A DNA stretch of 64,000 bases, taken from assembly GCF_030013205.1 (NCBI RefSeq), contig NZ_CP122648.1; one strand, written 5' to 3'. The position numbers and the translations under genes are program-made. Shown one piece after another: positions 60,882 to 61,195 of this stretch. Source of the DNA: Escherichia coli (GTDB lineage: Bacteria > Pseudomonadota > Gammaproteobacteria > Enterobacterales > Enterobacteriaceae). The notes beneath the pieces are model-generated. The model was not told the DNA's origin and searched no databases. It saw nothing but the letters and a program-made list of their open reading frames with translations. How positions within the stretch are numbered: the first letter of the stretch is position 1; every line of letters begins with the position of its first letter.

Positions 60882-60931
60882 TTGACACTGTTTATTCATA
60901 CAGTTAAAAATAACACTGTATACAAACACAG
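60882..60931 (+). promoter_or_regulatory. SOS promoter: -35 TTGACA plus two tandem LexA boxes
   Basis: TTGACA at 60882-60887; CTGTttattcatACAG at 60888-60903 and CTGTatacaaacACAG at 60916-60931, both matching CTGT-N8-ACAG; ends 16 bp before the dinI-like ATG. Confidence 0.7.
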
Positions 60932-60946
60932 TGTAGAGGGATTTTT

Positions 60947-61195
60947 ATGCGTATTGAGATCTGCATAGCTAAAGAGAAAATGACTAAAATGCCAAGCGGT
61001 GCTGTGGATGCGTTAAAGGAAGAATTAACTCGACGCATCAGTAAGCGTTATGACGATGTAGAGGTGATCGTAAAAGCCACCAGCAACGATGGCCTTTCTG
61101 TTACGCGCACCGCCGATAAAGATTCAGCTAAAACTTTTGTTCAGGAAACTCTGAAAGATACCTGGGAGTCTGCTGACGAGTGGTTTGTTCATTAA
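60947..61195 (+). CDS. DinI-family SOS protein (DinI/Tum-like)
   Basis: 82 aa [32 protein letters not shown]...[17 protein letters not shown], alignable by eye to DinI (MRIE..IAK...GA.DAL..EL.RRI...TWESAD.WFV). Confidence 0.8.

Follow-up and report, generated by a model that had tools for sequence, protein, structure and literature searches.

A prophage dinI cassette with tandem LexA boxes and its juxtaposition to a DRT10 reverse transcriptase locus in Escherichia coli

DinI binds RecA filaments, inhibits the co-protease activity and stabilises the filament (as cited in PMC3121763 and PMC8456039), and its acidic C-terminal helix has been implicated in RecA binding (Voloshin 2001, cited in PMC3121763). 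The dinI homologues of the Gifsy prophages are LexA-controlled and mitomycin-induced, which provides a precedent for SOS-regulated dinI genes in prophages, and deletion of the Gifsy dinI homologues had no measurable effect on prophage induction (PMC3121763). DRT10 systems, which were described in preprints of 2025-26 and one of which lies next to the dinI gene analyzed here, make protein-primed tandem-repeat cDNA (PMC12632851, preprint), and their activity has been tied to SbcB and an SSB-like phage trigger (10.64898/2026.04.29.721553, preprint). Their ncRNAs, of 137 nt and 143 nt, lie upstream of the SLATT gene, the 143-nt form ending about 14 nt before the SLATT ATG (PMC12632851; 10.64898/2026.04.29.721553). 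This ncRNA was reported to be "independently transcribed" from its native promoter and the system to be constitutively active (10.64898/2026.04.29.721553). The DinI family, the LexA control of dinI in prophages and the DRT10 system are already known; new are the exact modular anatomy of the locus, the layout of its tandem operators, the missing terminator, and the recognition of the adjacency of the two modules as a cargo-slot juxtaposition.

The window analyzed comprises 64,000 nucleotides of E. coli contig NZ_CP122648.1 (assembly GCF_030013205.1). Its 3' end is E. coli chromosome with yjjU, ytjA, osmY and prfC on the minus strand. In strain IHE3034 an identical locus closes the right side of a lambdoid prophage, which measures about 44 kb and extends from an integrase gene beside yjjG to dinI beside prfC. 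This prophage encodes a CI-like repressor of the LexA family (S24) together with a Cro-like protein, has replication genes and an antiterminator of the Q type, and carries lysis, terminase, portal, capsid and tail genes, gpJ, Lom and tail fibres (Stf), two of the tail-fibre genes being annotated as partial. The first-pass annotation had referred to P2/186-like prophages and to a prophage remnant. Neither was upheld: the gene content (int, CI-like repressor, Q, terminase, gpJ, Lom, Stf) is lambdoid, and the element that the identical locus terminates in IHE3034 is near-complete.

Integration took place inside prfC, at an att core of approximately ATTATTTCTCACCC. Of the prfC gene in the window, the first ~22 codons and the promoter are phage-derived, with the identical sequence in the free phage cdtI; this phage-borne 5' end replaces the K-12 start MTLSPYLQEVAKR (window 60655-60881), and the original 5' stub is retained on the yjjG side. 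Since the prfC promoter was replaced, expression of the release-factor-3 gene of these lysogens would start in phage DNA and run divergently to dinI. The motif (A/T)TGTACA(A/T) occurs four times (window 60747-60863) in the interval that separates the prfC start from the -35 hexamer of dinI, with further copies at the other prophage end in IHE3034; these repeats are probably arm-type binding sites of the integrase. At the opposite side of the locus the minus strand encodes a hydrophobic protein of 95-100 aa (phrog_1443; window 63425-63727); many lambdoid prophages encode this protein beside tail-fibre genes at their end, whether or not they carry DRT10.

The features of the locus are listed in Table 1. 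A TTGACA -35 hexamer, two CTGT-N8-ACAG boxes and a 16-bp gap between the second box and an 82-aa ORF had been described at first reading, and all of these, with their coordinates, proved exact to the base.

Table 1. Features of the dinI cassette and of the adjacent DRT10 module (window positions)
Feature	Position	Strand	Basis or remark
-35 hexamer TTGACA, prophage dinI promoter	60882-60887	+	Sequence read, promoter scan
LexA box 1, CTGTTTATTCATACAG	60888-60903	+	CTGT-N8-ACAG match; fills the -35/-10 spacer
dinI -10 region, TAAAAA or AAAAAT	60905-60911	+	Lies between the two LexA boxes
LexA box 2, CTGTATACAAACACAG	60916-60931	+	CTGT-N8-ACAG match; covers the expected transcription start
Shine-Dalgarno-like AGAGGGA	60935-60941	+	5 nt before the ATG; read from sequence
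dinI-like ORF, 82 aa, single DinI domain	60947-61195	+	Pfam, PHROG, PDB and K-12 comparison
Joint between dinI and DRT10 cassettes, 31 bp, without terminator	61196-61226	+	
DRT10 own promoter TTGACT-18-TGtAATAAT, extended -10	61227-61256	+	Promoter scan, cross-genus conservation
DRT10 ncRNA, approximate boundaries	61264-61405	+	Cross-species conservation, structured fold
SLATT_5 effector	61418-61969	+	PADLOC RTasSLATT 7.9e-57; NCBIfam SLATT_5 132.9 bits (cutoff 60)
UG17 (DRT10) reverse transcriptase, 456 aa	61947-63317	+	PADLOC RT_UG17 5.9e-159; RefSeq start at ATG

The promoter scan returned TTGACA-18-AAAAAT for dinI, with a score of 10/12, and an alternative with a 17-bp spacer and TAAAAA is equally possible. 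Box 2 begins 5 nt past the -10 and is contained in a 22-nt palindrome (ACACTGT..ACAGTGT); the dinI ATG at 60947 follows 16 bp past this box, and the TAA stop codon ends at 61195. The two dinI boxes are the only CTGT-N8-ACAG matches on either strand of the 64-kb window, where dinucleotide-preserving shuffles gave a mean expectation of 0.61 matches per 64 kb. They are spaced 28 bp apart at one promoter, and by arithmetic from the shuffle expectation a second match would fall within 50 bp of the first with a probability of about 1e-3, so that two boxes at this distance at a single promoter are far beyond chance. The classical 20-nt LexA consensus is TACTGTATATATATACAGTA. By manual count the 20-mers of box 1 and box 2 each match it at 15 of 20 positions, the same score as that of the single box of K-12 dinI, ACCTGTATAAATAACCAGTA; the ACAG half-sites of the prophage cassette are closer to the consensus than the CCAG of K-12 dinI.

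Conservation of the operators was analyzed in 63 upstream regions from IMG/VR, representing about 21 distinct variants; a stricter regex recount retained 20 regions only, and 63 is the fuller count. The CTGT and ACAG half-sites of box 2 were invariant in all upstream regions examined. Those of box 1 were intact in 62 of the 63 regions, the single change being CTGG, and one further genome carried CCAG. Both CTGG and CCAG are variants that occur in genuine LexA boxes. On the other hand, the spacer of box 1 was variable (TTTATTCAT, -CCAT, -CTAT, -TTAT, -TTGT), and the bases between the boxes and in the leader varied too. Retention of the half-sites while the spacer varies supports operator function, although it falls short of proof because the divergence of the cassette is shallow. 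As in the LexA regulon, CTGT-N8-ACAG operators with an AT-rich spacer overlap the promoter, and here two of them flank the -10, suggesting that the dinI promoter is built for LexA repression.

The product of the ORF was recognised as a member of the DinI family by Pfam PF06183 (1.8e-19, model positions 1-63 of 63), PHROG 189 "RecA filament binding protein DinI" (5.8e-31) and PDB 1GHH (2.9e-13, aligned end to end), and it is 45% identical to K-12 DinI, in agreement with the DinI-like ORF of the first-pass annotation. The acidic C-terminal helix, TWESAD(D/E)WFV, is conserved and aligns with that of the solved DinI structure 1GHH. RefSeq names the 82-aa protein "DinI-like family protein" (WP_001217550.1). 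Against the NCBIfam equivalog model of chromosomal dinI (NF007893) it scored 73.2 bits, below the cutoff of 111, indicating that it is a paralogue of chromosomal DinI; because of this score its activity on RecA may differ from that of the chromosomal protein. The PHROG 189 profile has 151 positions, and the protein matched positions 71-149 only, which form the C-terminal DinI part. For DinI proteins of E. coli prophages, searches of the literature for functional work gave annotation-level remarks only.

The distribution of the locus was determined by megablast of window positions 60760-63420 against 5426 complete E. coli genomes. The dinI cassette (60882-61195) was found in approximately 1800 of the 5426 genomes, in up to 7 copies each, and the RT part in only 187 of the E. 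coli genomes matched; annotations of about a third of the complete genomes include the cassette. About 90% of its E. coli occurrences were without DRT10. In the genomes lacking DRT10 the match covered query positions 120/123-436, equivalent to window 60879/60882-61195, with the -35 hexamer at one end and the stop codon at the other. Cassettes located at other att sites are likewise homologous from query 120-123 (window 60879-60882) on, so that the first base of the mobile cassette is the first base of the -35 TTGACA. The cassette was also present in 103 phage records, including cdtI, 2H10, PhiR63_1 and Stx1a-, Stx2a- and Stx2c-converting phages, and in the Stx-converting phage records listed dinI is the last gene, about 0.6-1.2 kb from the record end. 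Judging from this distribution, the dinI cassette is mobile and is the outermost, att-proximal gene of many E. coli lambdoid prophages.

The sequence past dinI was compared in 80 IMG/VR loci retained from 194 matches, in which DinI was 98-99% identical. The ORF was intact in these 80 loci and in most of the ~1800 genomes. The 3.5 kb past dinI held more than 25 unrelated classes of content in the 80 loci, among them tail-fibre and assembly genes on the opposite strand, pin-type invertases, effector-like genes and IS elements; DRT10 was found downstream of dinI in 5-6 of the 80, and in strain A3 the same slot holds ynaM/ydfK/pin. The gene order of the free phage cdtI is int, orf31, att, dinI, cdtC-B-A (other strand) and cif. 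In the phage cdtI record (positions 5088-9623) the slot past dinI carries cdtABC and cif. Because cdtABC and cif occupy this slot, toxin, effector and defence cargo share one insertion hotspot. Lying between tail-fibre genes on one side and att on the other, the region past dinI is a slot for variable cargo.

The RT locus of the window contains a UG17 reverse transcriptase, a SLATT_5 gene and, upstream of the latter, a structured ncRNA (z = -3.2 in an RNA fold of 61196-61420) that is conserved across species from 61262-61271 on. By these components it is a DRT10 locus, a typical tripartite module of the UG17-A type, and near-identical E. coli loci are present in the published UG17 locus table (PMC12632851). 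An Rfam search of 60700-64000 at a permissive threshold gave no match, the DRT10 ncRNA being absent from Rfam 15. A hairpin at 61363-61395 followed by CTTCCGCTTTT was considered as a terminator of the ncRNA and rejected, the T-run being absent in the Klebsiella, Enterobacter and Serratia homologues.

The boundary between dinI and DRT10 was located by comparison with DRT10 loci of other genera. For Klebsiella, Enterobacter, Serratia and Photorhabdus the first homologous nucleotide is 61227, precisely where the -35 hexamer TTGACT of the DRT10 promoter begins. With more distant DRT10 loci homology starts at 61262-61271, the 5' end of the ncRNA. The DRT10 promoter is conserved in the loci of other genera. 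The location of the dinI gene directly upstream of the RT locus, as described at first reading, is confirmed, with 31 bp (61196-61226) separating it from the DRT10 module. Both modules, dinI and DRT10, begin at their own -35. The two modules appear to move as promoter-first units.

Conserved co-occurrence, as expected of a DRT10 component, was not found for dinI. We examined 30 DRT10 loci of other species (20 GTDB representatives and 10 contigs of close relatives), situated in P4-like islands, defence islands or plain chromosome, and none of the 30 encoded a DinI-like ORF within 5-6 kb where the contig reaches that far; dinI was rejected as an accessory gene of DRT10 on this ground. Sorted by identity, the 187 E. 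coli DRT10 copies form bands of 33, 81 and 73 genomes. In the band of 90-95% identity (73 of 187 genomes) dinI was a pseudogene in all four members sampled, its lesions being a frameshift, a TGG-to-TAG change and a deletion at the 3' end. In these members (~94.7% identity) the SLATT (183 aa) and RT (456 aa) genes are intact, as are the dinI promoter and at least box 2, and the lineage occupies two att sites, prfC and yecD. In a further strain, APEC O78, an IS2 lies between dinI and DRT10, and two ORFs stand in place of a single RT gene.

The same 31-bp joint is found in the window, in yecD prophages and in the prfC pseudogene lineage, and in DRT10-less prophages the sequence diverges from the dinI stop codon on. 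Because this joint is common to the prfC and yecD copies, it points to one acquisition and later spread by recombination among lambdoid prophages. From this adjacency it had been suggested that DNA damage may be coupled to induction of the prophage or to the RT system. A conserved design of the placement is contradicted by the occurrence of the cassette alone in ~90% of cases, by DRT10 loci elsewhere without dinI, by the conserved promoter that DRT10 has of its own and by the dead dinI beside an intact DRT10 in one lineage. On these sequence comparisons dinI and DRT10 have come to lie side by side in a cargo hotspot of the prophage and do not form a designed unit. DRT10 would be a separate cargo in the slot between dinI and the tail-fibre genes, expressed from its own promoter and with no need of DinI.

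The cassette is most probably a stand-alone, LexA-repressed and damage-induced modulator of RecA that is carried by a lambdoid prophage. From the architecture, family membership, distribution and conservation observed, we infer that LexA would bind the boxes, that DNA damage would induce the gene, and that its product would bind RecA and affect prophage induction. In the undamaged lysogen, LexA dimers on box 1, in the promoter spacer, and on box 2, at the transcription start, would exclude RNA polymerase, and two operators flanking the -10 should give tight repression that is released late. After DNA damage, active RecA would promote self-cleavage of LexA and the dinI promoter would fire. The 82-aa protein would then bind RecA filaments through its acidic C-terminal helix and modulate the co-protease activity of RecA and the stability of the filament. 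In a prophage with a CI-like repressor cleavable through RecA, the DinI-like protein would temper or tune both the SOS response and prophage induction.

Absence of a terminator between dinI and the ncRNA, reported in the first-pass annotation, was borne out by two analyses: a terminator scan found no terminator-like site on the + strand of 60950-63734, and the RNA fold of 61196-61420 showed no terminator-like structure before the ncRNA. DRT10-less prophages also had no terminator just past dinI, and most of those inspected carry convergent genes there. Since no terminator separates the modules, the derepressed dinI promoter (PdinI) would probably produce dinI-ncRNA-SLATT-RT transcripts, adding to the output of the conserved extended -10 promoter of DRT10. 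Incidental read-through of this kind under SOS conditions is plausible as a consequence of the juxtaposition and is not evidence of coupling.

A stronger claim is that PdinI transcripts crossing the 31-bp joint into the ncRNA, SLATT and RT genes were the reason why the adjacency was selected, with the corollary that DNA damage raises the dose of DRT10 and lowers its activation threshold. It would agree with the co-orientation of dinI and DRT10 and their single joint at two att sites, and with a + strand devoid of terminators from dinI to past RT, where chromosomal dinI has a strong one. The LexA boxes and promoter also persist where the dinI ORF is dead, the Gifsy dinI gene opens a LexA-regulated operon that drives downstream genes (PMC3121763), and DRT10 depends on ssDNA metabolism via SbcB and an SSB-like trigger (10.64898/2026.04.29.721553). 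However, an extended -10 promoter belonging to DRT10 itself is conserved in every context, and the system is described as constitutively active and independently transcribed (10.64898/2026.04.29.721553). The common joint points to a single acquisition, for which reason the co-orientation counts only once, and in APEC O78 the modules are separated by IS2. In the pseudogene lineage the dinI promoter carries 4 changes in 65 bp, which is the background level of divergence, and it therefore shows no sign of special selection.

A second independent case in favour of coupling is a LexA-boxed umuDC operon of Buttiauxella, directly upstream of DRT10 and co-oriented with it. In Buttiauxella sp. B2 (L014, 3394-5470) a LexA box, TACTGTATATAAATACAGTT, matching the consensus at 18 of 20 positions, precedes the umuD-umuC operon. 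This operon ends about 190 bp before the DRT10 ncRNA, in the same orientation, and no terminator was detected between them. A relaxed search, for CTG-N10-CAG sites that agree with the LexA consensus at 13 or more of 20 positions, was made in the 3 kb upstream of 25 DRT10 loci and returned none besides this umuDC box. An SOS unit upstream of DRT10 was found in only 2 of about 21 independent contexts. This frequency is at most a hint, since SOS genes abound on mobile elements and the pattern was noticed post hoc. We consider it unlikely that read-through from derepressed PdinI (in Buttiauxella, from umuDC) was selected and makes this DRT10 copy damage-responsive. If it did, DNA damage and RecA activation would raise the dose of a defence system with an ssDNA-metabolism threshold, linking the SOS response to DRT10 activation through a layer of regulation that neither DRT10 preprint considers.

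The DinI-like protein could instead be an antirepressor of the Tum type, triggering induction of its own prophage under SOS; this is one of the two roles that the first-pass annotation had named for DinI/Tum-like proteins. LexA-controlled antirepressors similar to DinI do exist, in the form of Tum of phage 186 and of the dinI-antirepressor operons of Gifsy (PMC3121763). Here, however, the Tum-like N-terminal half is absent: the 82-aa ORF matches only positions 71-149 of the 151 of PHROG 189, an antirepressor half is neither fused to it nor adjacent, and the gap of 31 bp past dinI leaves no small ORF there. Moreover, the CI-like S24 repressor of the prophage could be inactivated by RecA directly, and the Gifsy deletion left induction unchanged (PMC3121763), so that an antirepressor role is highly improbable. 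Equally improbable is a decaying remnant gene with non-functional boxes and no present role, for although dinI is a pseudogene in one lineage and is not known to benefit the phage (PMC3121763), an intact ORF is found in the 80 IMG/VR loci retained from 194 matches (98-99% identity) and in most of the ~1800 genomes, the half-sites are conserved while neighbouring bases vary, and the promoter has the geometry of a working operator.

As a LexA-repressed RecA modulator the cassette alone carries little weight, since annotations and the work on Gifsy already cover LexA-controlled dinI paralogues of prophages. Its use is rather as a marker: many E. coli lambdoid prophages carry it at their att-proximal end, where it points to the adjacent hotspot of cargo such as DRT10, cdt and effectors. 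It also bears on the cloning of this DRT10 copy with native flanks, which would bring along a predicted SOS promoter without a terminator upstream, the DRT10 module beginning one 31-bp joint past dinI.

Compared with K-12 dinI (b1061; 1GHH), the prophage gene is alike in fold family, length, sequence (45% identity), the TWESADxWFV helix and the placement of a LexA box over the promoter. K-12 dinI has one imperfect box, ACCTGTATAAATAACCAGTA, whereas the prophage copy has two boxes with perfect half-sites; the K-12 gene has a strong intrinsic terminator at its stop codon, GCCGGGtcgCCCCGGC followed by TTTTTT, and the prophage copy has none. Unlike K-12 dinI, the prophage gene is mobile, occurs in multiple copies and scores below the NCBIfam equivalog cutoff. 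The dinI homologues of Gifsy-1, -2 and -3 (Lemire et al. 2011, PMC3121763) resemble it in being prophage-borne, in having a LexA box and in being the first gene from the promoter, and they are induced by mitomycin C. The Gifsy gene lies inside the phage, downstream of replication genes, and heads an operon with an antirepressor gene and irsA (PMC3121763), whereas the gene described here is att-proximal and terminal, with no antirepressor after it, and in most sampled prophages with the cassette convergent tail-fibre or cargo genes adjoin dinI. Tum of coliphage 186 shares LexA control and a DinI-like C-terminal half (PMC3121763), but its 146 aa include an N-terminal antirepressor half that is absent from the prophage DinI-like protein, and its host element is P2-like, that of the dinI cassette being lambdoid. 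DinI, LexA and SOS are mentioned in neither DRT10 preprint (PMC12632851; 10.64898/2026.04.29.721553). In the DRT10/UG17 loci of other genera dinI is not a component. The cargo slot between the tail-fibre genes and att is one that we take to be the "exchangeable effector locus" of EHEC prophages, which it resembles as a variable slot, filled by cdtABC and cif in phage cdtI, by ynaM/ydfK/pin in strain A3, by effector-like genes elsewhere and by DRT10 in the window.
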